A DNA stretch of 64,000 nucleotides from an uncultured Planctomycetota bacterium (GTDB lineage Bacteria; Planctomycetota; Planctomycetia; Isosphaerales; Isosphaeraceae). A model generated the notes under the pieces. That model was not told the DNA's origin and searched no databases. It worked only from the letters and a program-made list of their open reading frames with translations. The stretch is taken from positions 242,692 to 306,691 of the forward strand of contig CAVXHV010000009.1 in NCBI GenBank assembly GCA_963761445.1, written 5' to 3'. This document shows positions 7,573 through 29,731 of this stretch, piece by piece (positions within the stretch are counted from its first letter, which is position 1; the number at the start of each line of letters is the position of its first letter). The position numbers and the translations under genes were made by a program.

Positions 7573-9056
7573 CAATACCGTTTAATGAGTCATAACCACG
7601 GACTCCAGAAAGCTTTTCCTCAAGGGCGGACGGCGGCGGTGTTCGGGGCGTTTCTTCTTCCATTTCGACATCTTTCGCTTGATCACGCGCGGGTTGATTC
7701 GGTTACGCCGCGGCTCCGTGCGCTCGGTTTGCATCTCCCAGAGGACTGCTTTGTACCAACTTTCCAATTCCGCGCGTGTCTTACCTTTGCATTCGGGCAG
7801 CCGGCATTTCAGGATCTGGAAACATCCCGTGAACGACAGCCGATCGGGGTCGAGATCGGCCGTTGCAGCGGCCTCGAACATCAGCGACCGGATCACGAAA
7901 TGGGCCAGGGCCAACGCATAGACTTCCTGGATCACACCTGTGGGGGTTTCGCTCCGCAACTGCGCTGGCTTGGTCGCTCGTCGTGGGTCTTGGTGGGTCT
8001 TTTGCTCGTCGAAAACGAGTTCTTCCTCCCACCGTTCATGGTAAAGAAGGATCAATTCCATCGCGGGATAAAGTTCGTCGTCGAGGAGATTCGTCATGAG
8101 AACATGTTCCTCGCCGTGTCCGACCCGCTGGGGGTCGTCCAGCGTGTAGCGGATCACCCGGACTTCAATCCCATTGCGGTCGTGCTTCCGATCATAATCG
8201 CACTTGTAAATCTTTGTGATGTACGAACCATCGGCCAAGGTTCGAATAGGTCGCAAGATCAAACTGCTGGTCACACGCGCCAGCACCTTTACTTTTCGCT
8301 CGGTCAGCCTCTGCCACTGTGTATAGCTGAAAAAACCTCGATCCCAGAGCAGGAGCATTTCCGGAGTAAAGTGAGGGAGCAAACCCTCGACCATCGAGTG
8401 CTCGCCACAACTGCTACACCCCACGACCAAGGCGACTTCAACGTGAGTCCCCAACTCGACCAAGCTCAGCTTGCGAATTTGGGGGAAAGCCGCCATCGCC
8501 CCGCTCGCCCGCGGAGGGGCGTGCAAAGTTGGCCGCGTTGGCATCCGAGTCGGGGACATCGAGGATGGTCCCGTCGATGCCCATCAGACGCCACCCACGA
8601 TAAAATGCTCCCGGTGTCTCGGGCCGAGCGAGTGGATGAACGATCTGTTCGAAGAGATGTTGCACGGGTTCCACACCCAACCGCTGCCGGGCGACGCACA
8701 GGCTGGAACGATGGGGCGAGTCTTCACCGTGGTGAAATCGCCGAGCGAGCTTGAAGACCTGCCGAATCGGCACGTCGGTGAACAATCCCATCGCAAGCAC
8801 CACCCACAACATGATCTCATGGGTCAACGTGCATTGTCGCGAATTAATCCGGCCTGTGGCCGCAAGAGCTTGTTGAATGTCCTCGGGGCGGATAACCTTT
8901 TCGAGTCCAGCCAATCGGTCCAATACCCGGCCTGCTTCATCAGCCGGCAACGCACATCGTCCTTGATGCATGCGAGTCGCAGCCTCCTTGTTTCCCTGGT
9001 TGTTGCCAAACACAAGGTAACAAGAGGCTGTGACTTGCGCCTATTTCAACGGTATT
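7573..9056 (-). mobile_element. IS4-family insertion sequence, copy A (1484 bp)
   Basis: Termini are caataccgtt... and ...aacggtattg. A 10-bp direct repeat gggttagggg lies at 7563-7572 and 9057-9066. Roughly 90 percent identical by eye to copy B at 36477-37960. Confidence 0.9.
7582..9013 (-). pseudogene. IS4-family DDE transposase, frameshifted (copy A)
   Basis: ORFs 8438-9013 and 7582-8559 align to the N and C parts of the intact 476-aa copy B protein. One extra base relative to copy B lies in 8480-8530 (around ..GDGxFPQ..). Confidence 0.85.
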
Positions 9057-10531: not shown

Positions 10532-10932
10532 AATTTGCTCCTCGAGTTTCAGGTTGTCGTCTTTGATCTTGTTCGCGCCTCCGCACCCGCCGGCGCACTC
10601 TTCCCCGCTACCAAGATGATCTGCAAGAACTGCGATCCAGTTGCGCCAATCCACGAAGAATTCTTCAGTTTCGAAGAACCGACGTCCGGTTGTGCGGGTC
10701 GTACGGCACAGCGCGAAAAATTCGGCCGCCAAGCGCGCCGGAATGGCCTCGACCGTCCCATGAGCCTTTCCCATCCTCGCAGCCCCGGCAACGTGGCGAC
10801 ATCGTCCAGCCCAGGGTGTGAACCCCGGGAGTGCGCATGCGATCACCGCCCAGTCTGGGAAAATCCCTGTGCTCCGAGGATAATGGCGAGATGGATTTAC
10901 CCAACGGCATCAAGCGCACTGAGGAACCGTCC

Positions 10933-11157
10933 ATGACGAAAACGATCCACGGCAAGATCCACGGCAAGACCATCGAACTCGATGAAGACCTCGGCGTGGC
11001 CGAGGGCCAGGAAGTCGAGGTCCAGGTGAGGATCGTTCAACCTGCCCGAACATGGGGCGAAGGCATTTTGCGGACCGCCGGCGCGCTCGCCGACGACCCC
11101 GAATGGGACACGATCATGGAGCAGATCTATCAAGAACGCAAAGGGGGCATGTCATGA
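10933..11157 (+). CDS. Putative antitoxin (paralog 1) of a VapC module
   Basis: ATG at 10933. [32 protein letters not shown].. is paralogous to the next ORF. Its stop overlaps the next start (ATGA). Confidence 0.55.
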
Positions 11158-11462
11158 CCAGGGTATTGCATGGAATTGTCCACGGCAAAATTATCGAGGT
11201 CACCGAAGATCTGGGCATGTCGGACGGCCAAGCTGTGGAACTGATTGTCACGGCTTCACCCGCACCAGATCCATGCGATGAGGAAATCGGGTCGCGTAAA
11301 TCACCCAAGAAACTTCCGGGACCACCACCCGGATGGCAGCCCGGTTCCAAGCGAACGGCCGCAGGGATGTTGGCGGATTCGTGGACGGAGGAAGATGATC
11401 GAATTCTGGAAGAGATCTATCGGGATCGCAGGCGAGAAACCCGGCGAGGGGTCCCTGAATGA
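11154..11462 (+). CDS. Putative antitoxin (paralog 2) of a VapC module
   Basis: [32 protein letters not shown].. with a C-terminal ..EEDDRILEEIYRDRR. Its stop overlaps the vapC start (ATGA at 11459-11462). Confidence 0.55.
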   Translation: MTRVLHGIVHGKIIEVTEDLGMSDGQAVELIVTASPAPDPCDEEIGSRKSPKKLPGPPPGWQPGSKRTAAGMLADSWTEEDDRILEEIYRDRRRETRRGVPE

Positions 11463-11860
11463 GCTTTCTCCTGGACACCAACATCCTCTCCGCTCATTTG
11501 CGCCGCCCTTCAGGCTTGGCCCACCGGTTCTTTCAGTATTCCGGGCGTCTTTTGACAACGAGCGTCGTCTTGAGCGAATTGTTTGTCTGGGCGTACAACC
11601 GCCCAGATCCGACGAAGATAATGGTCGCCATTGATGAATTGCTATCCCAGGAGGTGAGCGTTCTGGACTTCGACCGGGACTGTGCCAACGAGTTTGGGCG
11701 AGTCCGAATTCAACTCAGGCGACGCGGCGTTGAGGTGCCTTCCGTAGACTTGATGATTGGTGCTGCGGCCCTTGTTTATGACCTGACGCTCGTCACCCAC
11801 AACACCGCCGACTTCCAGAACATCCCCGGTCTCAGGATGGAGGATTGGCTCAAGCCCTGA
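11459..11860 (+). CDS. vapC: PIN-domain toxin VapC
   Basis: MSFLLDTNIL.., ..SELF.., ..LTLVTHNTADF.. Typical PIN acidic residues. 133 aa. Confidence 0.85.
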   Translation: MSFLLDTNILSAHLRRPSGLAHRFFQYSGRLLTTSVVLSELFVWAYNRPDPTKIMVAIDELLSQEVSVLDFDRDCANEFGRVRIQLRRRGVEVPSVDLMIGAAALVYDLTLVTHNTADFQNIPGLRMEDWLKP

Positions 11861-12568: not shown

Positions 12569-13753
12569 TCACGCCCCCGCGGTGGTGTGTCCGGCTTCAA
12601 CAGTATCATCACCGGCCCCGACATCCTCCACATTCTTAATCTCAGACAGCATCCAGTCAAACGCCTCCAGGAACTTCGCCAGCGTCGCGGGTTCTTTCAA
12701 TAAGCTGAGACCGAAACCCGGCCGTCGATTCAGAGCGTCTTGCGGGATCGGGAGTCCGATCGCCAAAAGCCGCCGGAGAAGTTCTCTGCGTTTCGCTTCT
12801 TCGCCGAACGGCGGCCTCTTCATGTGTTGAAACTGAATCTCGACGGTGCCGTATGTCCACACGGAAAAAAGGAAGTGCGGTCCGAATTTGTTGTCGTACA
12901 TCGGAAAGAACGACCCGTCTTTCCTCCCTTGGCCCCACCAAACTCGCAGGCCGTGATCATTGGCCCAGAGCAGGAGCTTCCGTGCGATTGTCGTCTCCGA
13001 TTCCCCTCGCCTTTCGAGGATGCTGTCGAAGAACGACGCCTGATCCCACTGCCGTGATTCAGCCCGTGAAGCGCCCTTTTTTCCGCGAGCCGTTTCGGTT
13101 TGACCGAGCACGCGCGGGACGAGAGTCTTGAGGTTCTCGCCCACGAACTGCTTGACCTCGATGGCGAGCACCTCGGCCGGGTCCATCTGACTATTGAGGA
13201 ACTCGACAACCCGCCGCAGCTCAGGCGGAATCTCGTCGGCGATGAACAGCAAGCGGACCCGCCCGGCCTGAAGGTTCGTTTTCACTCGCTGCCAGAACGT
13301 CGCGGCGTCCTGACCTTCCCTGACGAGGTCGACAACTTCCGCCTCGGGGTCGACGCCATCCTCCTTGCATCGGTTCTCGAACCTGGCTTTGATCTCCTCG
13401 ACGGGCCAGTATGCGACCGCATTAGCCGCGTAGTCGAGCATCTGGCCGACGACCTCGCGCCGGACGCGGGTATCCGCGCTTCGCTTCACTTCGACGAGCG
13501 TGGGGATGGCTTCCTGATCGAGAAATAGATGGTCGAGCGCCCATCGACTCGACCCATCCTGTTCACCGGGGACGGCCATCTCACGGGTCACGAGCAACCA
13601 ACGCCTCGGCTGCTCGGCATTGATCTGCTCCCCGGCGAGCAGGTCCGGGTGATCGGCCAGGAGCTTCTGCAAAAGGCTTTCCGAGTCGTACGGCGCCTCG
13701 TCCATGGCGACCAGCTTCGTGTCATTACTCAGAAGGTAGATGCGACCACCCAC
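12569..13753 (-). CDS. PD-(D/E)xK (NucS/DUF91-like) nuclease-fold protein with an unknown C-terminal half
   Basis: ..LDHLFLDQEAIPTLVEVKRSADTRVRREVVGQMLDYA.. fits the D...(D/E)xK restriction-endonuclease-like core. 394 aa. Confidence 0.6.
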   Translation of the reverse strand: MGGRIYLLSNDTKLVAMDEAPYDSESLLQKLLADHPDLLAGEQINAEQPRRWLLVTREMAVPGEQDGSSRWALDHLFLDQEAIPTLVEVKRSADTRVRREVVGQMLDYAANAVAYWPVEEIKARFENRCKEDGVDPEAEVVDLVREGQDAATFWQRVKTNLQAGRVRLLFIADEIPPELRRVVEFLNSQMDPAEVLAIEVKQFVGENLKTLVPRVLGQTETARGKKGASRAESRQWDQASFFDSILERRGESETTIARKLLLWANDHGLRVWWGQGRKDGSFFPMYDNKFGPHFLFSVWTYGTVEIQFQHMKRPPFGEEAKRRELLRRLLAIGLPIPQDALNRRPGFGLSLLKEPATLAKFLEAFDWMLSEIKNVEDVGAGDDTVEAGHTTAGA

Positions 13754-13819
13754 GTGTTTACCTGTCTTGAAAACGGTAGCGCCGAGAGTGTCCAGCTCGA
13801 GCCGCAGTCACGACTCGCT

Positions 13820-14191
13820 TCACTTCTGCAACCGGTGCATCACGGCCCAGACCTCGTGCAGCGAATGTTCGTAAGGCGCTCCAGCCCGTCCCTGATGGCG
13901 TGCGACCTCCGACTTGAAGTTGTCGTAGTCGGTACCTTCCGCCAGCCCCGCGAGCAAACTCGCCCACGGAGATTTCTCAACGAATAGCCGGTACGCGTAG
14001 TCCCTCCCCACAGTTTCCTGGATTTCGCATGCACCGAGAAGGCCAGGGAACCGCTGTTTCAAGGCCTCGAGATGACCTCGGACTCTCGCGCGCACCATGA
14101 TGCGGTCGGGATTGACGGCCTGGCCATGCTTGCCGTCACCCTGCCGGGCGCAGACCGCACTAAAGAATCGGTGCTTTGTGAAAATCCACAT
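13820..14191 (-). CDS. Hypothetical protein (123 aa)
   Basis: ATG at 14191 preceded by ggag. MWIFTKHRFFSAVCA..IMVRARVRGHLEALK..DYDNFKSEV. The track ORF 13820-14404 overextends. Confidence 0.5.
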   Translation of the reverse strand: MWIFTKHRFFSAVCARQGDGKHGQAVNPDRIMVRARVRGHLEALKQRFPGLLGACEIQETVGRDYAYRLFVEKSPWASLLAGLAEGTDYDNFKSEVARHQGRAGAPYEHSLHEVWAVMHRLQK

Positions 14192-14247
14192 ATTTCGCTC
14201 CGCCTGCTCCAGCGTTTTGGTGTTGAAAACTCCCGCCGCTGCTCCAA

Positions 14248-14766
14248 TCAGAACGGCTCGAAAAACGACGGTTGCGGCCGCCGGTCCGGTTTCGTCAGGA
14301 CCTCGGCCCGCTCGGGATCCCGCAGCAGCCAGGCAAATCCTCCGGTCGTCTCGGTTATCGCGAAGCAGGCAGGCAGGCTGTGCCGCGGTTCGAGTGGTTC
14401 GCATCCCACGATCTCGACCGTCCCCACAAGCACGCCTCTTGGTAAGGCGTCGATGTCCATCTCGAACTCCGCCGCGATCCGACTTTCCTCGTGCCGCTCG
14501 ATACGCTGCAAACCGGCATAGATGTGAACGCGCTCTCCCTTCTTATGAGTCCGTCTCGGTCGGGCCTCGACGGTTTTCGCGCCACGCAGGATCAACTCAG
14601 CCCAAGGCTGTCGGACGCTGAGGGCTCGCACTGATATTCTCCAGTTTCGATACCTGTCATCGTTCAAATCGGAGCCGGTGCCTCGCTCCGTTTCCTGATC
14701 GACTGCTTCTTCGGGCTCGCAGCGCTGGAACACCCTCGGTCCTGGCGGACGTTCAACCGAACTCAA
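14248..14766 (-). CDS. ASCH (ASC-1 homology, PUA-like) domain protein
   Basis: ALSVRQPWAELILRGAKTVEAR..GERVHIYA.. is the typical ASCH N-terminal strand-helix. A TTG at 14766 overlaps the upstream stop. An alternative GTG at 14631 would give a 128-aa protein. Confidence 0.7.
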   Translation of the reverse strand: MSSVERPPGPRVFQRCEPEEAVDQETERGTGSDLNDDRYRNWRISVRALSVRQPWAELILRGAKTVEARPRRTHKKGERVHIYAGLQRIERHEESRIAAEFEMDIDALPRGVLVGTVEIVGCEPLEPRHSLPACFAITETTGGFAWLLRDPERAEVLTKPDRRPQPSFFEPF

Positions 14767-15323
14767 GTCTGCCGAGCGTCTACAACTGTCTTCGCCGCAT
14801 CGAGCAGTTTCCGGGCCTGACGGTCCGCTTCCTCTGCCATCTGGACGCTGACATGCGGCTTCAGCTCATGGAGTCGTGCGGCAACGCCGTCAGGATCGAC
14901 AACCCCCTCTCGCATTCGAATCCAGATTGCAGTTGCCAGGGGCTCCAGTTCGATAACGCCCATTCGCCCAATCTGGCCACAAACAAATTCCACGGCCTTC
15001 TGTGACGCCTCTGGCAGGGGCGAAAAATCCTTCACCAACAAAGCGTTCATGCCCGGACTCAACCGGACCCCGTACCAGCCTTCCACCGTGTCCGACTTCA
15101 GGGCCGCATAACTCTTCATTTGCTCGAGCTCAATCTCAAAGTCCGTCAGGTATGGACCGTGTTTGTAGAGAACGAAGTTAAATGGCGCCTCCAGCAGCCC
15201 GCAGGCATCCAAAAGGAATAGGGCTTTCTGGACATGGGTCTTTCCCGTCCTGCTTTCGTGCTTGTTCAGACTTTCGACGACCGCCAAGATGAGAGCGTGC
15301 TTGTCAAACCGCATTTCGTTCAC
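14763..15323 (-). CDS. DUF4065 / Panacea (SocA-like antitoxin domain)-like protein
   Basis: ..KTHVQKALFLLDACG..FNFVLYKHGPYLTDFEIELEQMK.. resembles the DUF4065 core (KLQKLLY...W.yGPv). The GTG start overlaps the corrected HD-gene stop (GTGA). Confidence 0.5.
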   Translation of the reverse strand: MNEMRFDKHALILAVVESLNKHESRTGKTHVQKALFLLDACGLLEAPFNFVLYKHGPYLTDFEIELEQMKSYAALKSDTVEGWYGVRLSPGMNALLVKDFSPLPEASQKAVEFVCGQIGRMGVIELEPLATAIWIRMREGVVDPDGVAARLHELKPHVSVQMAEEADRQARKLLDAAKTVVDARQT

Positions 15324-16634
15324 CCTTTCCTTTCGGGCGAATCACCCAGTAGTCGCCCCAGCTCGGATTCGATCTTTGGCTTTGCCTGATCCTTGGTATC
15401 AGGCGGAACGAAAATCAAGCCAATCTCGATCGCCGGCAATTGGGCGATAACCTTGGAGACTGACGGTGAGCTGACCACGGAGTGATCATCTGTCAGGACC
15501 GGAAAATCGTTCGTCTCTGACTTGGGCCCGTATCGATCCCAAAGGACCTGTTCCGCGCCGCAGACCCCCTTCGTGAATTCCAGGAGGTTTTCGAAAGATC
15601 GTCGGGCACCTCTCCTTGTAAGAACCGAGCAATTCGAACACCGTGCGAAAATGCTTCCGAGAGACTAACCTTGAAGCGAGTTCATGGAGCCGATGGTCTG
15701 GATGCGTCGCACACCGTCTGATCGCGGCGGTCACTTCATGATCGGTGTAATTCATCATCGCCTCCCAATCGGCTGAGAACTTGCCACCGTCAAGCCACCC
15801 TTGGAGGAAGTCTCTGAGATGGAGGTCATACACGCGCCGTACATCGTGGAAGTAAACCTGAGTGTACATGAAGTAGCGGGCCAGCAAGAGGGCCTCCGCG
15901 GAGTGAATACTGCCAACGTCAAGCCCGAGCGCGATCTCGTTGTTATCAGGATGGATCACGGCTCGCAAGCCTGCGATGAGGCGGTCCTCGTCGAATCGTC
16001 CATAGGAGACGCCAGCATGCCATGAATCGCGAAGAAGGTAATCGATCCGATCGGCCCCGAACGTGTTACCCGTAATGATTTCATTGAGCAGCGTCTTCCA
16101 CGGCGACAGATTCACGTTCGGTTCAACCCGAAGACGTTTCTTCAAGTCCCAAGACAGGTCGATGACGTCCTCTGGGCGGATCGAATCGTCCTCCAAAATC
16201 CCAGCGATCTCTGAGTGCCGGATCGTCTCGGCTGTGATGCGCTCGTGGTTCCATCCTTCCGGTAGCAACGCCTCCTCGGCGGCGTGGGAGAACGGCAAGT
16301 GCCCGACGTCATGAAGAAGCGCCGCGACTCGTACGACTTGCCGCCAGTTTTCCTTACGCCGCGGTTCCAGCTCGTCGGCGATCCTCTCGCGGACAAGATC
16401 CGGGACCGTGACGTCGAAAACCGCATGGAAAATCTGATCGGCTACCTCCATGACCCCGATCGAGTGTTCGAACCGCGTGTGCGTGGCCCCGGGGTACACC
16501 TGGTAACACATCGCAAGTTGATGGATACAACGCAATCGCTGAAACGGCTCGGAGTCGATGAGCCGCTTCTCAAGATTGTTGAAGCGCACGAAGCCATGAA
16601 CCCCGTCACGCACCTCGTGCCGCACTTTCGCCAT
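15320..16634 (-). CDS. SAMHD1-like HD-domain (d)NTP triphosphohydrolase; one apparent frameshift near 15593
   Basis: VHGFVRF..EPFQRLRCIHQLAM..VYPGATHTRFEHSIGV.., LHDVGHLPFSH, GADRIDYLLRDS. A 92-codon stop-free frame (15320-15598) continues the protein after a 1-nt shift. Confidence 0.8.
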
Positions 16635-16739
16635 GTCCCCGGTTCCCCGTTCTATACTAATAGTGGACTTGCGTCAACTTCCTTGCGGTACCCCTGTCTA
16701 TCCCCACATCTCAGAATCTGGCCGGCGCCCGCTGGTAAA

Positions 16740-16777
16740 GGGGCGTGAGTAGCAATGGAACAGAAAACTGGCATAAG
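16740..16777 (+). repeat. Tn3-family terminal inverted repeat, left
   Basis: GGGGCGTGAGTAGCAATGGAACAGAAAACTGGCATAAG. Has the canonical GGGG...TAAG architecture. Confidence 0.9.
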
Positions 16778-16796
16778 GACCGTCTACGCCGCCAGG

Positions 16797-19791
16797 TCAT
16801 CCTGCTCGTCGGGGCTCGCGAAGCGGTCGTAGCTGCCCCTGCCGGACTGATTCCTTCAGGGCGAACTCGTACCGGCCCAGCACGTTGACGTGGTCGAGCA
16901 GCAGCGGCGAGAGCCGTTCGACATCTTCCGGCTTGACCGCCTCGCCGGTGGCGCGGACCTTGGCCAGGGCGGCGTCCAGATAGCGGGTGTTCCAGAGCAC
17001 CACCGCATTGACCACCAGACCCAGCGCCCCCAGTTGGTCCTCCTGGCCTTCGCGGTAGCGTTGCCGCAGTTCGCCCCGCTGGCCGTGGAAGATCGCCCGC
17101 GCCACGGCGTGCCGGCTCTCGCCCCGGTTGAGCTGGGTGAGGATGCGGCGGCGATACGCCTCGTCGTCCAGGTAGTTCAGCAGGTACAGCGTCTTGGCCA
17201 CGCGGCCCAGCTCGCCGATCGCCCGGCCCAGCGTCGAGGGGCGACCGCCGCCCTGCAAGCCGCGGATCAGCTCCGAGGCGCTGACGGCCCCCATCTTCAA
17301 CGACCCGGCCACCCGTAGCAGGTCGTCCCAGTTCCGCTCGATCCGCGGGATGTTGATCCGCTGGCGGGCCACGCCGTCGAGCGCCCCGTAATCGGCCTTC
17401 GGGTCCATCCGCCAGAACCGGGCATCCCCGAAGTCGGCCAGCCGGGGGCTGAACTGGTAGCCCAGGAGCCAGAACAGGCCGAAGACCAGGTCGCTGTAGC
17501 CGGCCGTGTCGCTCATGACCTCGTGAGGGCGAAGGCCGGTCTGCTGCTCGAGCAGGCCCTCGAGGATGAACAGGGAGTCGCGGATCGTGCCCGGCACGAC
17601 GATGGCGTGGAAGCCGGTGAACTGGTCGCTGGTGAAGTTGTAGTAGGTGACGCCGCGTCCGGTGTTGAAGTACTTCGGGTTCGGGCCGGCGTTGAGGGTG
17701 CGGACCGGGACGACGAAGCGGAGGCCGTCGGCCGAGGCGACCTCGCCGCCGCCCCAGGCCCGCGCCAGGGGGATCTGGGCCTGGTAGTCGACCAGCCGGG
17801 CGTTGGCCTTGGTGATGGTCTCGGCGCGGATGTAGTTCTGCTGGACCCAGGAGAGCCGGCCGCGGGTCAACGCGGGGACGTCGGGGCGGACCAGGGGCTC
17901 CAGGCCGATGTTGCACGCCTCGGCCAGGAGCACCGCGCAGAGGCTCAGGTCGAGGTCGCCGACCCGGGCGTCGCCCTCGCTGACGTGGCGGAATTCGCCG
18001 GCGAAGTTGGTCCAGGCCAGGACTTCCAGGAGGACCTCGGTCAGGTCCACGCGGGGCAGCCGCGCGGTCACGTCCCTGCGGAGATCGACCAGGCTGGCGG
18101 GCTCGTCCAGCTTGTCCAGCGGGGTGAGCGTCAGGACGTCGCGCCGGCCGACCCGCTCGATCGTCACGGCGGAGTTGGTCGGCAAGTTGTTCGCGGTCCG
18201 CCGGTAGGCTTCGTCGAGCTGCTTGCCGAGGCTTTCCAGTTCCCGGCCGCCGTGGGCGATCGTCCCAACGTCCGACAGACGCGCGACCGCACCTTCTCCC
18301 AGGCCGGCCCTTGCAGGAGCTTGGCGTGCGGGTCGCCCCAGCGGCGGCTGGCGGGCACGAACAGGTCGCGGCGCTTGAGGCCGTCCTGGAGCCGTTCCAG
18401 GACGCAGAACGTGTAGAGTTGGCGGTCGATCCGGCCCTCCGGCCCGATCACGACCCGCTTCCAGGCCGGGGTCAGGAGGGCCTGGGGTGCCTGACTCATG
18501 TCGGGCCGCTTCTGTCCCTCGATGGTCTTGAGGAAGCGGAATGCCTCGGTCGCGGGCCGGCCCGCGTCGGTCGCCGCGAACTCGACCGCCTCCAGGAGTG
18601 CGGGCAGGAAGCGACGCACCTGACTGTATCGGCTCCGCAGATCCTCGAAGTAGTGGTCATCGGGTGTCCCGACCAGGTCGGCGACCTGGGCCACGGCTTG
18701 GGTGAGCTGGTCTCGGGAGACGCGGGCGAAGACGGCGTTGCGGACGCCTCGGTCGGCACACCCGGGGTCGAGCACGACGAGGCATGCCTCGTGGAGCAGC
18801 AACGCGGCGACGTCCAGATCCTTGAGCGTGCGGAGGCGCCGCTGCTGGCCGGCGCGTTCGACGCGGCCGAGCATCGCCGTGACCAACTGATCGAGCAGGT
18901 CCACGACGTCATCAAGGGCCGCGATTTCCTGAACCTTGGCGAAGGCGAGGAGGGTCGCCTGGCGGCGGGGCGGAGGCATCCGGGCGATGGCCTGCGCCCG
19001 TGCCGCGGCGGCGAACCGGGCCAGGGCATGGACCCGCACGGGCGGCACGGCGGACAGGTCGATGTGGCTCACCCCCAGTGCCCGGATCTCCTGGAGCCGT
19101 CGCAGCGCCTCGACCAGGCCCGCCATGCTGACCCGGGTCGGGGCGCGGCGGAGACGCTCCAGGGGCGACTGGCGGGAAACCGCGTCGGCGACCAGCAACA
19201 TCTCCAGGCGGGCCGCTTGCCGAGGCTTCAGGGCGCGTGCCAGGGTGCGCCACAACCGCAAGGCGGCCCGGTCGCGGACCTGGGCCACCAGGCGGGCGAG
19301 CACCGTCACCCCCGGCAGAGAGGATCTTGCGCTCGACCAGCCGAGCCGTGGCCAGGTCGAAGAGGACGCTGGGACGTTCGGCACAGACCCAGGCCCGGTT
19401 GGCGAGCCAGCGGGACAAGGCCGCGGCTCGGCACCCTGGTGGAAATCGCGGTAGCCGTAGTGGCGGCGGATCTCGGCGGCATGGTCCCAGCGCTTCTCGC
19501 CCGCCGCGTAGCGCTTCAAGCCGCCGGTGTCGGCGATGCCGAGTTGCCGGCCGAGGTAGGCGACAACGCCCGGCGGGACCTCGGTCGGGTCGGGCAGGAA
19601 GGTCCCCAGGAACCGCACGGTCCCGAGCTGCACGGCGAACCCGAGGCGGTTGTGATCGCCCCGGCGCTGGGCGATGAGACGCGGTCCGTGTCGTCGAGAT
19701 GGAAGTAGCGTTCGAGTTGGGCGGGCGACGGCTCGCCTGCGTAGCGACCGTAGCGGCGCTGTTGCTCCTCGGTCAGGAAGTCGACGGGCAT
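16797..19791 (-). pseudogene. tnpA: Tn3-family transposase TnpA, at least 4 apparent frameshifts
   Basis: N-terminal [31 protein letters not shown] (DUF4158-like). C-terminal DDE_Tn3 part is ORF 16797-18185. Frame changes near 19685, 19425, 19320 and 18243 (the last in a CCC run). Confidence 0.9.
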
Positions 19792-19817
19792 CCTTGCCCT
19801 CCTTCGTCGCGGCGGGC

Positions 19818-20722
19818 CTACTCGCTCTCGCCGATCCGCTCGACGGCCCGCTCCAGGTCGAGGCGTGACGGCGTGCAATAGCGTCGGGTGGTCTCCAGGC
19901 TCTCGTGCCCGGCGAGGGCGGCAACCTGCTCCAGACCGACCCCGGCGTCGATCAGGTTCTTGCAGAACGTGTGGCGCAGGGCATGGGGCGAGAGGTCGTC
20001 GAGCCGGGCCAGGGCTCCGTATCTGGCCAGGAGCGTCTGGACGCCCGGGGCGTCATCGGCCCGCGCTGGCCCTGAAGGATCACGGCCTCCTCGCCGGCAT
20101 GCTGCGAATAACCCAGGGCCGTCAGCGCGGCCCGGGCGTCCTGATTGAGCGGCACCTGGCGGTGCTTTCCCCCCTTGCCTTGGCGGACCGTCAGCAGGCC
20201 CTTGCGTTCGGAGAGGGCGACGTCCTTCCAGGTCAAGTCACAGAGTTCCTGGACTCGCAGGCCGGTGTTGAGCAGGAGCCGGACGACGGCCAGGTCCCGC
20301 GGCTTTCCGGCGCGTTCGACGGCTCGGAGCAGGGCGTTCTGCTCGCGGCGGTCGAGCCAGCGCGGCCCGGGCCGCTCCTGGGGAACGGCCGAGGGCCGCT
20401 CCAGGATCGGCCTTGGGCGGGAACCGGGAGGCCGGGAGCGATACCCGCCGCGGCCGCCCAGGTCAGAAAGCTCTTCAGGGTGGCGAGCTTGCGGTTGACG
20501 CTGCTGGGCTTGAGCTTCCGTTGCTCGACCAGCCATCGCTTGAACTGCCTCAGGTCGGTCGGGGTGACCTTGGCCGGCTCCATCGGCTCGCCGTTGACAT
20601 CCTCGAACCAGGCGGCGAAGGCGGCGAGGTCGCCGCGGTAGTTCTTGATCGTCAGGGGGCTGCGCTCGGCCTGGGCCAGGAAGCCGGCGAAGCGATTCGA
20701 TGGGGTCGGAGGCACGGGCCAT
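19818..20722 (-). pseudogene. Tyrosine recombinase (TnpI/XerC-like) of the transposon, at least 2 apparent frameshifts
   Basis: N-terminal SAM-like part ..LTIKNYRGDLAAFAAWF... Catalytic motifs TGLRVQEL, HALRHTF and [11 protein letters not shown] are spread over three frames. Stop at 19818-19820. Confidence 0.8.
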
Positions 20723-20810
20723 CGTTATACGTCGAGTATTTCGGGGATCGGGATCGGAATCGGGCGGTCTTATACGCCGAGTCGGCCCGGAAGTCAACGT
20801 ATAACGTCAG
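20723..20810. promoter_or_regulatory. Putative recombination (res/IRS-like) site and recombinase promoter region
   Basis: cgttatacgt (20723-20732) and its inverted partner acgtataacg (20796-20805) flank a third half-site cttatacgccgag (20769-20781). Lies immediately upstream of the recombinase start. Confidence 0.4.
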
Positions 20811-20970
20811 TTCTACGACCACTTGGCGGATGCACCATAGGGTTCATCCTTGAGCCCAGTGGCTGGGGTGGATAGGCTGCAAAGGATCGTCGATGACTTT
20901 GAACCGTGGTCCTCTCAGTCCGCTGTTCCGCCACCAAGCCGCGACCACTGTCACTTGAGAGGACGGGACC

Positions 20971-23900
20971 ATGGCCGGAAACTGGCGTACCGTCCGCGTG
21001 TTCATCTCCTCGACGTTTCGCGACATGCATGCGGAGTGCGATCACCTCGTGCAGGTCGTCTTCCCCAAACTCCGCGAGCGGCTAGCTTCCTACCGTGTCG
21101 AGCTGATCGACATCGATCTCCGCTGGGGCGTCACGCGGGAGCAAGCTGAAAACGACCAGGCAGCTCGATGTCTGTCTGCACTGGATCGACGAGTGTCGGC
21201 CCTTCTTTATTGGCCTGCTGGGTGAACGCTATGGCTACGTCCCTTCCCGCCATCCGATCGTCGCCCAGTCGAAGTACGGTGAAGTGCAGTTCGAGACCGG
21301 CCGCAGTATCACCGAGTTGGAAATTCTCTTCGGTGTCCTACTCAACGACCCGCCGAATGCGCGGTCGGTCCTTCTTCTACTTTCGCGACCCCGACGCGTT
21401 GAAGGACGTCCCCGAGGACGTAAAGCGATCGACCTACCTTGAAACCGATTCCGCCTTCCAGGTGAAGCTGGCCGTGCTGAAGGAAAAGATCCGTGCCAGC
21501 GGGGTGCAGCTCATCGAGGACTACCCAGCCAGTTGGAACTCAGACACTTTCGACCGTCCGACAAAGTCCCTTGGCCGCCTCGACGGCCTGGAGGCGTTTG
21601 GCGAGCGGGTTTACGAGCAACTCTGGCGAGCCATCCAGATCGAGCACACTCTTCTCGATGCGCCCCCGGCCCCCGCTGGCCAGGACGAGCTGCGCGGCTG
21701 GCCTCCGAGGTTGACGACTACTGGCGCGGTTCATGGAGTCTCGCCTCCGCGTCTATGTCGGCCGCGGCGAATTGCAAGACGCCCTTATCACTTACGCTGA
21801 CGGCAACCATCACTATCCCTGTCTCCTAACCGGCCAATCCGGCTCGGGCAAGTCGTCAGCTTTGTGCGCTTCGTCATCGCATACCAGGAACAGCACCGCA
21901 ATGTGCTTGTCATCCCTCACTTCATCGGTGCCAGTCCCCGCTCGGGCAGCCTTCGCGACCTGCTGCGCCGACTTTGCCTGACGCTAAAGGGTGCCTTTGG
22001 CTATGGAGAGGACGTTCCCCTGGAGATCGCCCCGCTCGTTACGACCTTCCGCGACTTCCTGGTCCGCGTCCCGGCTGACTGCCGCGTCCTGATCGTGTTG
22101 GACGCCCTCAACCAAATCGAAGAGAGCGATCGTGCCTGCGAATTGTATTGGTTGCCATACGAATTATTACCTCATGTGAAAATTATAAGCAGCTGCATCA
22201 TCGATCCGAGGTCTCCCGGGGCCGAGCTCGACCCAGTCGCGAACGCCTTCCAACACCGGCCTGCTCACCTGCTCCGCGTCACAGACCTCAGCGACACCGA
22301 CCGCCGGACGATGATCTGCGAGTACCCCTCGCTCTTCGCCAAAACGCTCGACGCCTCCCAGATTGGTATGCTCCTGTCCAACCCGGCTACGTCCACCCCG
22401 CTCTACCTACGTGTCGCTCTGGAGGAGCTTCGCGGGTTCGGCTCGTTCGACGATCTCGATGACCGCATCAAGGCTCTCCCTCGCGACGGCCTACCCGACG
22501 CCGTCTTGCTCCACGCCGGCTTTTCGCCCAAGGCGATGCGAAAGGCCGGTGACCCGCTCACAGCGCTTTTCGTGCAGGTAATCGAGCGGCTGGAATCCGA
22601 GTTCGAATGCGAAGACGTCCGCTCGATCCTCACCCTGCTCGCCTCCGCGCGGTTTGGGCTGTCGGACCGCGAGCTGCTCGAATTGCTCGAGGGGCCAGGC
22701 GTGGCGATCGAGGCCAGCACGAGCGACCTGTTTCCCAGACTGCGCCAGCTCCGTCCTTACCTCCAAAATGTCGGCGGCCTGCTCGGTTTCTTCCACGGCA
22801 ACTTACTCCAGGCCGTCCGGCGGCATTATCTCGATACCGATGACCAACGGCGTACCGCACACGCCCGGCTTGGTGACTATTTCGAGCCTCAAACCACCTG
22901 GCTCGAATCGCCGGACGCGTTCTGGGAACGAGCCCGTCACTCGGCACCGTCACCTCGCCTCGCCAACCTCCGCAAGGTCGATGAGCTGGTATGGCAACGG
23001 ATCGAGGCACAGGAATGGATTCTCGTTGTGAAATTGCTGACAAGCCTCGATTGCCTCGAGGCCAAGGCCGAAGGCGGCCGCACATTCGATCTAGCCGGTG
23101 AGTTGGCCAGGGTTACTCAGAGGATGCCCGAAAACGATTCCGCTCGGCAGCTCCTTCGGCTGCTCGAACAAGCGATCCGGGGCGACATCCATTTTCTGGT
23201 GCGTCATCCGACAACGCTGTTCCAGTGCCTCTGGAATCGCTGCTGGTGGTACGACTGCCCGGAGTCCGCTGAGCACTATCTGCCGGGGGACAAGCCACCA
23301 GTGCAGAGCGGTTCCAACTCGAGGACTCTTCGACTTGATGGAAGCCTGGCGAAGAACCAAGGAGGCCGTGCAGCCAGGTTTCATCTGGCTCCGCTCGCTC
23401 CGCCCCTCCCCCACGCGTCTGGGGCGGGTCTACTGGCGGTCCTTCAGGGACACGCTGGCCCGGTCCTGGGTGTGGCGTTCTCGGCTCAGGGTGATCGAAT
23501 CGCGAGCGGCGCGGAGGACCAGACGGTGAGGGTCTGGGACACCGCGTCCGGGTGTGAGGTCGGATGCCTCAGAGGACATACCGCCGCCGTCGGCTGCGTG
23601 GCGTTCTCGCCCGACGGCCGGTGGATCGCCAGCGGGTCGAAGGACCAGACCCTACGCCTCTGGGACTCCCGCACCGGCGCGAGCTCCTCTGCCTGGACGG
23701 ACACACCTCCGAGGTCGTGTGTGTGGCATTCTCGCCCGACGGCCGGTGGATCGCCAGTGCGTCTCATGACTGCACCGCCCGTCTCTGGGAGGCCGATTCC
23801 GGCGCGAACGCGTCTGCCTCCGCGGACACTCCTCTTGGGTCGATGCCTCGCATCTTCGCCCGACGGCGAGCGAATCGCGACGGGCTCCTCGGACCAGACC

Positions 23901-24972
23901 TTGCGTGTTTGGGATACCAGCGTCGGAGTCGAGCTCGTCTGCTCGAGCAACGCCGGGTGTTCCATTGAGGATCTGGCCTTCTTACCTGGTGGCCGTCGCA
24001 TCATCACCGGCTCAAGAGGCGGCACCATCCAGCTTTGGGACGCCGATTCGGGCGACGAGCTCGGCGGCCAGCCGGGAAACAGCCAGATCATGGGCGTGGC
24101 GGTGGCACCCGACGGTCGCAGGATCATCGACGTCTTCTGGGATCTCAACCTCCGCCTCCACGACACCTTCTCGGGCCACACATACGCCATCTACCGCGGC
24201 GCGGACGCTGTCGTCGGGAGCGTCGCTTTTTCGCCCGACGGACAACGCATCGCCAGTGGCTCGTGGGACCACCTGGTGCGGGTCTGGGATGCCGGCTTCA
24301 GCAGTGAACCCTCTTCCCTCCGAGGCCACACCACGGAAATCGCCGGCATCCAGTTCTCGCCTGACGGACGACTGGTCGCAAGCCACTCAGAGGACGGCTC
24401 TCTGCGTGTCTGGGACGCTGGCTCCGGGCGAGAAATCGCCTGTTGTCGCGACGGCGACTACTCCTCCGAGATCGTCAGTATGGTCTTCGCACCCGAGGGC
24501 CGATGGCTGGCGTTCACTCGGTCGAATGGCACCACACGTGTCTGGGACGCCCAATCCGAGGGAGAACCTGTCACCCTGCAAGGACTTGGCCCGGGAGTGA
24601 CTGGTTGGATGAAACGGCTTGACTTCACCTCCGACGCCCGGCGCATGCGTGGGCGTCTTACTCGACGACACCGTGGCCGCCTGGAACCCCAAGACCGGGG
24701 CCCGACTCGAAGCTCATGATATCCAAAGAGAGGTGCCCGGACCTGCTCCAGCGAACGGGGAATTCCCGTGGCGCGCCCGATCTGAACCGGGCGGGGACAC
24801 AGCGATCGTGCCGGCGAGTGGGGGAGCCCCTGTGGCATGGTTCCCCGCAACGCCCGACGAGTTGAAAACCTCGCCTTCCGGTCGTACCTGGGCTGGGAAT
24901 GTCTTTAAACACCTATATCTCATCCGCCTGGAAGGCGACTCAAGGTTCCGCGAGCAAGATTGTAACGGTTAG
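20971..24972 (+). pseudogene. DUF4062-NACHT-WD40 STAND NTPase (NWD1-like architecture), at least 8 apparent frameshifts
   Basis: N-terminal VRVFISSTFRDMHAECDHL..DLRWGV (DUF4062-like). Walker A LLTGQSGSGKSS, Walker B VLIVLDALNQ. Many GH..V..VAFSPDG..IASGS.D.T.R.WD repeats. Pieces lie in ORFs 20971-, 21168-, 21733-, 21864-, 23564- and 24619-. Confidence 0.85.
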
Positions 24973-25036
24973 ACTATCCATTTCGCCTTCAGGTCGGTTG
25001 GCCACAGTGTCCAGGTGCTTCGGTATTTGGCGTGGG

Positions 25037-25074
25037 CCTATTCCAGTTTTCTGTTCCATTGCTACTCACGGGCC
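25037..25074 (-). repeat. Tn3-family terminal inverted repeat, right
   Basis: cctattccagttttctgttccattgctactcacgggcc. Reverse complement of IR-L with 4 mismatches; the outer GGGG has become GGCC. Confidence 0.85.
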
Positions 25075-25288
25075 GTAAAGCTCGAGTTAGATTTCCTTCC
25101 ACCAATGCCAAGATTGGTGCGGAACTCCCGTGCGCCGTCGTTCGCACATGAGGCTGAAAGTCCGGCAACTGAAGCACGCCGCGATGGCAGTCTCCGAGCA
25201 GTTTGTGGAGGTCAAACGGGTTTCTCTGGAATGTTGATCCGGGCATGATTCGAGCTTTCCTTCTCGGGCAACCGTTTCGTTAAACGGC

Positions 25289-25794: not shown

Positions 25795-27128
25795 CTAAGG
25801 AACAGGCCGAGAATAAGTTCCCGGCGTTATACGGTCTTGGGTTCGGGGACTGCTCGGTAGTTCCACTTGGGCAGGATCTTGTCGAAGATGATCTTCATGG
25901 TCTTCTTGAATCCCGCGGCACACTTGCGTCCTGTCTGATACATCTTGTAGAGGATACGCACGCTGATTGTCAGGCCCGTCGTGGTTTCGGTCTTGGATAT
26001 GTAGTGCTGCACCGTTTCCAACGTCCGAAAGATCACGCCCCGACACGCTCGCGTCACATGCGGGAAAAGGCGATGCTCGATCGGGTTATACTTCGAGCAG
26101 TAAGGCGGGTAGTGGGCCACCCGGATTTCGACGCCCAGCCGGTTCGCTAGCTCTTGGAGCTGCTCCTTGAAGACGTACCTCGACGCACTGTTACTCCCGC
26201 CGCCGTCGCACAGCACTAGGATCTTCTTAGCCCTGGGATAACTCACCCGTCCGTGATCCTCCCACCACGCTGCGATACTGTCACAAGCCAGCTCGCTGGT
26301 GTCGTGGCTGGTGTTCAGGTGGATGAATCCTCGATTTCGCCCTACATCGTAGACGCCGTGAGGAATTACCACGCCCGAGCCTGCACTACTGAAATCATGG
26401 TCGTTGGTTTCAATCGTCTCCTGCGTGTCGATTACGCCGTCACGGTGGAAGTCACCCATCAACTCCTTCTTCTTCGTGTCGATGCTGATGACCGGCAAAC
26501 CGGCCTTCAGGTACTTCTTCTTGAGACGGGCGATGTTCTCGAACTGGACGTTGCGGTCCGGGTGACGCGGTCCCATCGTCTTCTTCTTCAATGCTTTTCG
26601 CCTTCGGTATCCGTGTTTGCGAAGCAACTGGGACACGATGTGTCGACTGGTCGGAGTACCCAAAGCCGTGACCCGAAGCGCTATCTGTCTACGTGACAAG
26701 TTCGTCCATTTCACGTCGGTGCGCATCGGATCTCCAGCAGTGTGGTCCTCGAGAACCTTTAAGAAGTTCGCTTCGACGGCAGCGTTGATCTCGATCGCCT
26801 TTTTGCACCCCCCCCTTTTTTTCGGACACGAGTCGTGTCCAGCTCATCTGTCGCTTCCAGCTCCGCCTTTCCACGGCGGATCGTCTTTGGATCGCATTCA
26901 AGGATCTGGGCAATGTACTCAGTTCCACCATGACCCAGTTTGGCAGCCTCGATGGCCGCGTACCGCCGTCGATCGTCCTCCGAAAGTGACTCATACAGCC
27001 GCTTCATCATCCGCTCAATTTCCGGTGCATACGCGTCCATGCTGCCCTCCTTGGCGTTTCCCTACGGACAGCGAGCTTGATATCATACTTCAGGGAAAAC
27101 GGGAAGTTAATTTCGGCCCGTTCCTAAG
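25795..27128 (-). mobile_element. ISAzo13-family insertion sequence (about 1334 bp)
   Basis: Imperfect 29-bp IRs (24 of 29): ctaaggaacaggccgagaataagttcccg at 25795-25823 and cgggaagttaatttcggcccgttcctaag at 27100-27128. Confidence 0.75.
25827..27040 (-). CDS. ISAzo13-family (Rhodopirellula-type DDE) transposase; frame change in an A7G8 run
   Basis: ORF 26759-27040 (..RVRKKGGG) and ORF 25827-26726 (..DPMRTDVKWTNLS..YPPYCSKYNPIEHRLF) join across the homopolymer at 26808-26822. Confidence 0.8.
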
Positions 27129-29731
27129 CATGCCGGACGAAGAAGCTCTCTTCGTTGTAATCGGTATCGATGAACCAACAAGCGATGCCCGCAGCGCCGT
27201 CGCTTCGAACTTCGCCGGTGTTGGGATGGAAGACATCCACCCCGTTGATCTTCACTCGCATCTGACCGTTAATTTCCGGCATGAGCGTGATGTCCGGCTC
27301 GCCGAAGATGACGAAGAGATTACCTTTGCCGGTGTTCTTCAGATCATCAGACATGTGCAGGTCGGCGTTCATTCGCGCCTTCAGCACGGGAATGCGGCCG
27401 AGCTTGTTGAATTCCGTCGTATGCGCCTCGTAGTTAAACGCGCAGGCGATCAGCACATCGAAACCCGCATCGCCGGCCTCGCGGGCGGCCGCCACCAGGT
27501 CGGCGCGCTGAACCGTGCCGAACTCCGGCCCGAGAAAGATAGCGGCGCGTTTTTCATTGTCCCCTTCCAAGTACCGCCCCTCGGCGCAGACAAAGCTCCC
27601 TGGCCAGGGCGTCAGCGCAGTGAACGTGATTCGGTCTTCCTTACGCGCCTGCTGCACGCCGGCCGTCTTCAGATTCTCCAGAATCATCTGGTCGAAACTG
27701 CCGCCTTCGTCCCTGATGTTCGAAAGCGGATCGATCAGCTCGTCGTTTTCATCCACGCCGAGCGTGCGGTGGGGAGAGAGACTCTCGACGGTGAAGGGGC
27801 CGGCCACTCGCACCTTCTTTTTGTCTTCATAGGGTTTGTCATAGAGGAATTCAAACTCGGCCTTGGCGGCGATCGAGGCGTCGATCTCCTTCTGCCGCGA
27901 GGTGCGGGCCTGCCACCACTCGGCGTGAAGCTTCCGCACGGGCTGTGACCACTCATCCTCCGGCTCGCGCGGAATCTCCCACTCCCGCCAGGACCTCCCG
28001 ACGGCGGCGTTTAGCGAGTCGCGCAGCGGCCCCAGCGCGCCCTGCCACTTTTCCCAGATGACGTCGATCTCCGCATTATCGGCGATGGACTTGAGCGTGA
28101 TGTGCGGCACCCGCTCATAGACAAAGCCGTGGCGGACATTGCCGTGAACGGGCTGCGAAGAGGGCGCGGTCCGGGAGACCTCGGCTTCTTTGAGCTGGCC
28201 ATCGCGGGAATCAGCTAGGAGGTAGTACGAGTATCGCGCGCCCATGATGCGGGCACGGGCTAGCGCCAGCGCGACGCGCGAGGTGTCAATCGTGATCCAG
28301 CGACGGCCCCATTGCTCTGAGACAGCCGCAGTGGTTCCCGACCCACAAGTCGGGTCGAGCACGAGGTCACCGGGATCAGTCGCCATCAGGATACATCGCT
28401 GGACTACCTTTTCGTTTGTCTGGACGACATAAACCTTGTCCGACGCACCTCCTACGTCGGTCCAAGCGCCGCCCAAGCTGACGGTTGGGTCGTCACCGAA
28501 GAAACGCCGGAGGCTGATTTGCTTACCGTCAATGACAATGCGACCAGCGCGCGCAACTCTTCCAAGTCCATCTACAGTGACTTTCCAGTGCGCCGCCTTT
28601 CCAGGGTGGAAGGTCACGCAGTTAAACTGGAAGTCAACAGTCGTATTTGGGCGGAAGCCGTCGGAGGTTAATGGATAGGACCTCCACACGACACTCAAAT
28701 CCTTTATCAATGACGGATCATCTCTTTCGTCTCGAGTTAGAGATCGGCTGTCCACAGGCGACGTCGCAATCTTGGTGTAGCCGCTGCCACCTTCACCCTT
28801 CAGATCTCGAGGACGTAGCAATGCCCTAAACTTGCTCTCAGCGGCACGCCTTGAGCGGGCAAACCATAGGATTCGATCAGAATTAGACTGAATAAACGCT
28901 CCCACAAGGCTTCCAGTCTTCTGAACCGCGATCTCAACAACGAAGTTCTCTTCTCCAAATATCTCCTCAAGTCAGCGCTCGAATGCGATGCACGTTCTCA
29001 TCGCCGATCTGCACGAAGATGGAACCAGAATCAGTGAGCAAATCCCGCGCAACGGTGAGACGATCACGTAGGTAGGTGAGATAGCTGTGGATACCATCGC
29101 GCCACGTGTCACGAAACGCTTTAACCTGCTCCGGCTCACGCGTGATGTGATCGGCCTTACCATCCTTCACGTCGCGGCTCGTCGTCGACCACTGAAAGTT
29201 ACTATTGAACTTGATCCCATAAGGAGGGTCGATGTAGATGCATTGCACCTTGCCACGCAACCCCTCGCGCTCGGCCAAGCTGGCCATGACTTGGAGCGAA
29301 TCCCCGAGGATCATGCGGTTCGACCAGTTCTGGTCATGCTGATAGAAATCGGTCTTGTCCACCCCGTCCGGAATCCCGTTGAACTCGGCAAACAAGTCAA
29401 GTTGAACCTGCTTGCCCGGCTTCTCCTGTTGCTGCGACTGCCTCAGCAGGTCGTCAATGAGAACCTTCGGATGCACCTTCTCCTGGATATAGAGCGGCGG
29501 CGCGTGCACGACCAGGTCGCTCCAGTCCTGGGTATCCTTCCCACGCCAAACAAGCTGCGGGTCGAGATCGCGATTCCGCCGCTCGTACGCAACCCGGATC
29601 AGCCGCTCCGCCTCCTGTTTCACAACGGACTGGAATTCCGCCGTCGGGATGTTCTTCCGCTTGTCCGCCTCGTGCATGAGGGTCTCGACCGTCTTCTTCG
29701 CCGGTTCCTTCGCGGATTTCTTCGCCGCCAT
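27124..29731 (-). CDS. mod: Type III R-M DNA methyltransferase (Mod, beta-class N6A/N4C); frameshift near 28970 and 3' end cut by ISAzo13
   Basis: IYIDPPYGIKF (motif IV) in ORF 28967-29731. DPTCGSGTTAAV (motif I) in ORF 27124-28905. The join reads ..RIRAL|LEEIFGEENFVVEIAVQKTGSLVGAFIQ. The stop codon lies within the IS terminus. Confidence 0.85.

Follow-up and report, generated by a model that had tools for sequence, protein, structure and literature searches.

The 64,000-nt stretch of DNA analyzed here, referred to below as the window, comes from an uncultured Planctomycetota bacterium of the Isosphaeraceae (assembly GCA_963761445.1, contig CAVXHV010000009.1, positions 242,692 to 306,691). 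Its minus strand carries three closely packed, co-oriented genes: a SAMHD1-like (COG1078-type) HD phosphohydrolase gene (15320..16634), a middle gene of the 'YwgA' type whose product resembles the C-terminal domain (CTD) of DarG (14763..15314), and an ASCH-domain gene (14248..14766). An earlier note on this DNA had read the three as a coupled trio forming a candidate toxin-antitoxin (TA)-type defense module. The comparative analysis described below shows that the functional unit is a two-gene operon of the HD and middle genes, not a trio.

As assembled, the HD open reading frame (ORF) runs from 16634 to 15486 and encodes 382 aa (recorded as protein P0107) with an aberrant tail that resembles no homologue, while translation in another frame keeps the HD continuation open as far as TGA 15322-15320. 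A tblastn search with a 437-aa homologue (P0105) gave two abutting matches in different frames, the first covering residues 1-347 at 16634-15594 (frame -3, 87% identity) and the second residues 347-437 at 15595-15323 (frame -1, 75% identity). The single 1-nt shift that the earlier note placed near 15593 was thereby located at 15594..15596 on the minus strand, as a +1 frameshift caused by one surplus base in a short run of T (TTT) at ATCTTTCGAAAAC, a junction at which homologues read TIFE[D/N]LL. The repaired product has 437 aa, 91 of whose codons lie beyond the shift and end at 15320, and it aligns over 99-100% of its length with homologues of ~430-445 aa. The annotation is corrected accordingly: the truncated HD gene was mis-called. 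The frameshift itself could be a true mutation or a homopolymer assembly error.

The middle gene encodes 183 aa if translated from ATG 15314 and 186 aa if translated from GTG 15323. The overlap noticed previously between the HD stop (TGA 15322-15320) and this GTG (15323-15321), which reads GTGA, is indeed present. The nearest homologues of the middle protein begin MRFDKHALIL, and ATG 15314, 5 nt past the HD stop, is therefore the likelier start; HD and middle genes are tightly coupled under either choice. A second overlap, TTGA, between the middle-gene stop (TGA 14765-14763) and a TTG start of the ASCH gene (14766-14764) was likewise found as described, as was the alternative GTG at 14631. The ASCH gene may start at either of these two codons, with the Pfam match beginning at residue 49 and GTG 14631 lying just ahead of the domain; in a related contig (L081) the ASCH ATG lies 9 nt past the middle-gene stop, and the 45-codon N-terminal extension diverges faster than the core (dN, the nonsynonymous divergence, 0.145 vs 0.056). 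A scan of 13600-17000 gave no promoter-like site, and terminator-like sites in the same interval were no more numerous than expected from shuffled sequence.

In the HD protein, both Pfam HD (PF01966, 38.5 bits vs a cut-off of 22) and HD_assoc_2 (PF19276, 54.3 bits vs 23.1) are matched above their gathering thresholds, and among proteins of solved structure the top match is Aquifex O67745 (2HEK), aligned over residues 7-418 at E 3e-54, with EF1143 (E 8.5e-28) and SAMHD1 (E ~1e-23) as further relatives, in agreement with the SAMHD1-like identity proposed earlier. These three proteins constitute one SAMHD1-like structural family that is distinct from Dgt-like dGTPases (PMC7854603, PMC3190883); for 2HEK, biochemical characterization was not reported (PMC3190883). 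The H...HD...D metal ligands, the catalytic His/Glu and the alignable N-lobe expected of a SAMHD1-like (COG1078-type) enzyme are all found: the protein has R54, H57, H108, D109, H112, H117, H130, E131, D195 and D198, each of which reaches at least 97% conservation across 100 paired homologues. Because the catalytic residues are conserved, the enzyme is likely active, and by homology it is most likely a deoxynucleoside triphosphate (dNTP) triphosphohydrolase (dNTPase).

The middle protein, in contrast to its earlier description as DUF4065 (Panacea)-like, matches no Pfam family, and SocA_Panacea (DUF4065, PF13274) is not detected even at E<=10; among 38 relatives, SocA_Panacea matches occur in nine, all of them sub-threshold (best E 0.0043). 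Direct DUF4065 membership was rejected on these grounds, and a superfamily-level link through the DarG CTD was retained. In the PADLOC DarG model, which has 329 positions, the middle protein aligns to 164-323 (E 6.4e-8). Its AlphaFold2 model, built on 38 relatives (pLDDT 93.5, pTM 0.90), retrieved only chains B and D of 7yk3 in a Foldseek search of the PDB at E<=0.001 (TM 0.69, probability 1.0, 186 aligned columns), and a profile of 64 diverse relatives compared with PDB sequences retrieved only 7yk3_B (E 0.002). This structure, 7YK3, is the DarT-binding C-terminal domain of Mycobacterium tuberculosis DarG, and alignments show that QK..[LY]F and [YK]xGPYS motifs are common to the middle family and the DarG CTD. 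The middle protein thus has the fold of the C-terminal toxin-binding domain of DarG. The DarG macrodomain (ADP-ribosyl glycohydrolase) is lacking from this protein of 183-186 aa, which scores 18.3 with the NCBIfam DarG model vs a cut-off of 250. According to a 2026 paper, DUF4065 proteins are homologous to the DarG CTD (PMC13621843); the 'Panacea-like' label is therefore right for the homology group, although the middle protein is not a Pfam DUF4065 member. Comparison with a viral structure library gave only weak matches to Sulfolobus virus proteins, which are uninformative.

Relatives of the middle protein are annotated by JGI as 'uncharacterized protein YwgA' and those of the enzyme as 'HD superfamily phosphohydrolase', and no published function for YwgA was found in the literature searched. 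In Bacillus subtilis, the gene names ywfO and ywgA suggest that a similar pair of neighbors may exist. The middle-gene family is sizeable: clustering at 90% identity gives ~3,280 clusters, and ~1,670 representatives are left at 50%. In other organisms, two proteins (P0290, 453 aa; P0296, 586 aa) carry the DarG-CTD-like domain fused C-terminally to DUF4062 (Pfam E ~1e-17), which suggests that this domain can serve other putative effector or sensor modules.

Conservation of the HD and middle genes as a pair was examined in two samples: 80 metagenome loci retrieved by searching with the HD protein, 72 of which (41-71% identity) have enough downstream sequence, and 80 loci from species-representative genomes found by a profile of the middle protein. 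On the HD side, the middle gene lies directly downstream on the same strand in 71 of the 72 evaluable loci (68 by a strict window plus L157, L167 and L168, where the ORF opens earlier). On the middle side, an HD homologue lies directly upstream on the same strand in 67/80 loci, and the HD gene is intact in 57/80. The middle-side loci span Planctomycetota, Armatimonadota, Nitrospirota, Desulfobacterota, Chloroflexota, Spirochaetia and Bacillota, as well as the methanogenic or methanotrophic archaea Methanothrix and Methanoperedens; relatives of the window proteins themselves come from Planctomycetota metagenome-assembled genomes. In 86 of 123 pairs, the middle gene is predicted to start within the 3' end of the HD gene (most commonly at offsets of -4, -20 or -1 nt), and a further 32 pairs have a gap of 0-30 nt, so that 118/123 are overlapping or near-abutting. 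Distance matrices of the two proteins co-diverge strongly (Mantel r 0.86, against a maximum of 0.12 in 999 permutations), with the middle protein evolving faster than the HD protein (mean distance 0.61 vs 0.49). The two genes are therefore an adjacent, co-oriented, tightly coupled and conserved pair, as is characteristic of type II TA loci. The pair is present in cultured strains, including Geobacter argillaceus ATCC BAA-1139 (L059) and Desulfobulbus alkaliphilus DSM 24258 (L064), and, because it is also short (~1.9 kb), it is directly testable. A 642-aa protein (P0157) considered as a natural fusion of HD and partner was rejected as a frameshift artifact, its C-terminal half being apparently out of frame after ~90 partner residues.

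The ASCH gene showed no comparable conservation. Its identity was upheld by a Pfam hidden Markov model search (PF04266, 32 bits vs a cut-off of 21.2, above the gathering threshold, residues 49-139), and its product also matches phrog_3193, a phage protein family of unknown function (E 3.5e-24). In the earlier note, an HD toxin would be held in check by a PanA-like (DUF4065) antitoxin with ASCH as a sensor or accessory protein, and co-occurrence of the trio in other genomes was named as a check. The tight coupling of the first two genes supports that proposal in part, and within the window all three genes are co-oriented and closely packed. In contrast, tblastn found an ASCH homologue in 0/80 middle-seeded and 0/80 HD-seeded loci, a Pfam census of 129 flanking ORFs (142 families) did not include ASCH among the recurrent families, and the genes downstream of the pair elsewhere vary in strand, size and family. 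With nothing recurrent in the tblastn searches of these 160 loci, the clustering of downstream ORFs or the flanking census, ASCH was rejected as a third component. The middle/ASCH arrangement recurs only in L081, where the core of the ASCH gene is under purifying selection relative to the window (ratio of nonsynonymous to synonymous divergence, dN/dS, ~0.23). However, L081 is 91% identical in DNA over window positions 13813-15401 and thus provides no independent evidence for a trio, the arrangement there persists without HD, and the closer HD and middle pairs (L085, L090-L094) have no ASCH gene. A three-gene module is accordingly considered very improbable: the ASCH gene is a lineage-specific downstream neighbor outside the conserved module and should not be read as a member of the system. 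A 123-aa ORF (13820-14191, minus strand, MWIFTKHRFF...), located 57 nt downstream of the ASCH gene and without a Pfam or PHROG match, is syntenic with ASCH in L081 and may belong with it rather than with the HD pair.

Loss of the enzyme gene is frequent and asymmetric. Among the 80 middle-seeded loci, the HD gene is intact in 57, frameshifted in 6, fragmentary in about 5 and absent from 9 (the other 3 are cut by a contig end or have too little upstream sequence), and the middle gene is apparently intact throughout. Conversely, an intact HD gene without its partner was seen in only 1 of 72 HD-side loci. That orphan partners are common and orphan enzymes rare fits an enzyme that is harmful or useless without its partner. 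In L081 (7915-9787), a deletion has spared no more than the final 26 codons of HD, while the genes that follow (middle, ASCH and those further downstream) are intact. Compared with its counterpart in the window, the middle gene there has a dN/dS of ~0.21, indicating that it is maintained without the enzyme partner. In short-read metagenome contigs from several samples (L086-L089, 5673-6965), the HD gene is split into two ORFs, one for HD and one for HD_assoc_2, upstream of an identical middle gene, which suggests a fixed true disruption rather than a sequencing error.

Near-obligate pairing and co-divergence would suit any obligate heteromer, and the small protein might instead be a positive factor that the HD enzyme needs, such as an activator, an oligomerization helper or a nucleic-acid-targeting subunit. 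SAMHD1-type enzymes do bind nucleic acids at allosteric sites (PMC7854603), and the fusions of the small domain to DUF4062 (P0290, P0296) are compatible with such a role. However, a mere helper should vanish together with the HD gene, yet the middle gene is retained, under purifying selection, at loci with a deleted or broken HD gene, and the structural relative of its product is an inhibitor, which makes a purely positive role quite improbable.

Instead, the pair is interpreted as a regulated or TA-like nucleotide-depletion module in which the partner restrains the enzyme, a reading given somewhat better than even confidence. The first gene would supply a SAMHD1-like HD-domain enzyme, by homology a dNTP triphosphohydrolase. 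The second, which encodes the DarG-CTD-like protein of ~180 aa and has its start no more than a few bases from the stop of the first, would be translated in step with it. Its product is inferred to bind the enzyme and hold it in check, either as an antitoxin-like inhibitor or as a trigger-sensitive gate, so that nucleotides would be depleted only upon removal or alteration of the partner, for example during phage infection. Such a module would plausibly serve defense. What is observed here is the identity of the proteins, their pairing and coupling, their co-divergence, and the context and decay of the loci; that the partner binds and inhibits the enzyme, that the enzyme hydrolyzes dNTPs and that the pair acts against phages is inferred.

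The genomic surroundings of the pair elsewhere are varied. Type I restriction-modification (R-M) genes and transposases neighbor the pairs of L090-L093, SNF2/PLD helicase and MmeI/Eco57I-type enzymes that of L094, and SNF2/NOV_C and AAA_14 proteins that of L082, while the families that recur in the flanking census include R-M methylases, helicases, AbiEii-like AAA_21 proteins, reverse transcriptases, ImmA/IrrE peptidases and transposases. With its patchy distribution across bacterial and archaeal phyla, variable neighborhoods and frequent loss of the enzyme, the module behaves like an accessory element. These features also bear on the alternative that the pair is a housekeeping or stress enzyme of the nucleotide pool with a dedicated regulator (a winged-helix factor or an allosteric subunit) and no part in genetic conflict. 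COG1078-type enzymes include EF1143, a dNTPase outside defense (PMC3190883), YwfO has been discussed as a sanitizing enzyme (PMC4993169), and the 'uncharacterized protein YwgA' label of the relatives is compatible with such a role, as are the pair loci that lie among housekeeping genes and the weak resemblance of the N-terminal part of the small protein to winged-helix regulators. Against this stand the patchy phyletic spread, the absence of a conserved neighborhood, the R-M genes and transposases that recur nearby and the frequent loss or frameshifting of HD; moreover, the only structure that the small protein resembles strongly is an antitoxin domain that binds a toxin. A housekeeping role is thus judged unlikely.

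Several observations weigh against a restrained nucleotide-depletion module. Some pairs are found amid genes for gyrase, MetRS and ABC transporters. The N-terminal half of the middle-protein model is winged-helix-like, with weak PadR, MarR and ScpB matches, and DNA binding or autoregulation by this protein is therefore possible. With a median pI of 6.8, the middle family lacks an acidic character; single-stranded DNA (ssDNA) mimicry in the manner of DarG is therefore not indicated, and the idea of an acidic DNA mimic was dropped as unsupported. An enzyme-first gene order and a 'toxin' of 437 aa are atypical for classical type II TA systems. The HD protein scores 26.6 bits with the curated anti-phage dGTPase model NCBIfam NF041026, far below its cut-off of 400. 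No match to the middle protein was found among PLSDB plasmids or INPHARED phages, and IMG/VR contains only a few members of the family, at 6 loci; the mobile elements in these three collections are not its vehicle. Finally, errors in long-read assembly, and not decay, may account for some of the broken HD genes.

The earlier note was aware of no named system with the composition of the trio, and the combination of an HD enzyme with a DarG-CTD-like protein likewise has no counterpart among the named systems of PADLOC v2 or the literature searched. It combines TA-like control with nucleotide-depletion effectors and can be compared with several characterized systems. In common with DarTG, the middle protein shares, over its whole length, the fold and motifs of the DarG domain that binds and inhibits DarT; in contrast to DarG, it has no macrodomain and no indication of ssDNA mimicry, and its partner is an HD phosphohydrolase rather than the ADP-ribosyltransferase DarT. 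In common with PanAT systems (PF13274), it is a small, mainly helical partner of an unrelated enzyme in a two-gene operon, it belongs to a group joined to DUF4065 by homology to the DarG CTD (PMC13621843), and its relatives also occur with other partners or as fusions. Unlike PanA, however, it fails the PF13274 model, and its partner is nearly always one HD enzyme instead of a promiscuous range of toxins; among the toxins in the Panacea and NetFlax literature searched, none is an HD protein or a dNTPase.

The closest functional analogue is Clover, a regulated two-gene anti-phage system in which the gene next to that of the HD-domain dNTPase CloA encodes its restraint (PMC12265719). The present pair would likewise be a two-gene dNTPase module, but the regulators differ: the inhibitory nucleotide of Clover is made by CloB, a nucleotidyltransferase of the Pol-beta type, whereas the middle protein matches no nucleotidyltransferase family and has a DarG-CTD-like fold, which places the pair outside Clover. 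The SAMHD1, EF1143 and 2HEK group of tetrameric dNTPases shares with the HD protein conserved metal-binding and catalytic His/Asp residues, with a near-full-length alignment in the case of 2HEK; no dedicated small protein partner has been described for any of them. Single-gene anti-phage dGTPases, reportedly the work of Tal et al. 2022, are also HD-superfamily enzymes proposed to deplete dNTPs. In contrast to the present pair, they belong to the Dgt-like rather than the SAMHD1-like structural family (PMC7854603) and have no partner gene, and the PADLOC dGTPase model is matched by the HD protein in the HD motif region only (residues 22-123), not over its full length.

The copy in the window is probably impaired, because the frameshift removes the conserved last ~90 residues of the enzyme and a Tn3-family transposon has inserted 101 nt upstream of the HD start codon. 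This transposon is complete (16740-25074, 8,335 bp), as judged by its inverted repeats and target duplication: the left 38-bp inverted repeat (16740..16777, plus strand) is identical to 25037-25074 at 34 of 38 positions, and a 5-bp duplication, GTAAA, flanks both ends (16735-16739 at the left, for a total span of 16735-25079). The GC content of the transposon is ~70%, vs ~57% for the HD and middle genes. For this local copy, the pair could be a decaying remnant with no present function, its close packing being merely historical: in addition to the frameshift and the nearby insertion, HD is deleted in the nearest relative, and other window genes are split, namely tnpA (16797-18185 / 18164-19924) and an IS4-like transposase. 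In contrast, the middle and ASCH genes have dN/dS values of ~0.2 vs L081, and the homopolymer frameshift may be an assembly error. A functionless remnant in the window is thus possible, though it leans toward the unlikely, and it would concern this copy alone, not the family at large.

The wider neighborhood agrees with the earlier description of an island of TA, R-M and mobile elements, as it holds transposases, the Tn3-family transposon, a PIN/VapC-like gene and a DNA methyltransferase. In addition to the split tnpA, the Tn3-family transposon carries a tyrosine recombinase (19952-20797) and an ORF of 951 aa (21864-24719) in which WD40 repeats and a NACHT/STAND-like N-terminal half were read by eye. 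Four further assignments come from translations read by eye. Three are on the minus strand: the IS4-like transposase, which is divided between two ORFs (7582-9013), the ISAzo13-like transposase (25827-26726) and the DNA methyltransferase (27124-28905). The fourth, the PIN/VapC-like ORF (11459-11860), is on the plus strand. It follows two small tandem ORFs with similar N-termini (one of them HGIVHGKIIEVTEDLG), and this plus-strand region (10831-11860) resembles, by eye, a TA locus of the VapBC type in which the antitoxin-like gene is duplicated. On the minus strand at 12569-13753, a 394-aa ORF without a Pfam or PHROG match contains a D...EVK motif that, by eye, is reminiscent of PD-(D/E)xK nucleases. 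The presence of several split genes in the window suggests pseudogenes or assembly indel errors.

In very distant phyla, archaea among them, a family of small proteins with no Pfam model and no published function is thus near-invariably paired with a single SAMHD1-like subfamily. Should the small protein inhibit the enzyme or sense a trigger, the pair would represent a third means of controlling nucleotide-depletion immunity, besides allosteric nucleotides and the signal nucleotide of Clover, and would tie the DarG/Panacea antitoxin fold to SAMHD1-type enzymes. Extended to its full scope, the proposal is that of a widespread, unnamed bacterial and archaeal immune module in which a DarG-CTD/Panacea-type protein gates a SAMHD1-like dNTPase directly, protein to protein, a tentative proposal whose chances are put at somewhat less than even. 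If true, it would provide a prokaryotic counterpart of regulated SAMHD1 restriction and would extend the repertoire of antitoxin domains to dNTPase effectors.

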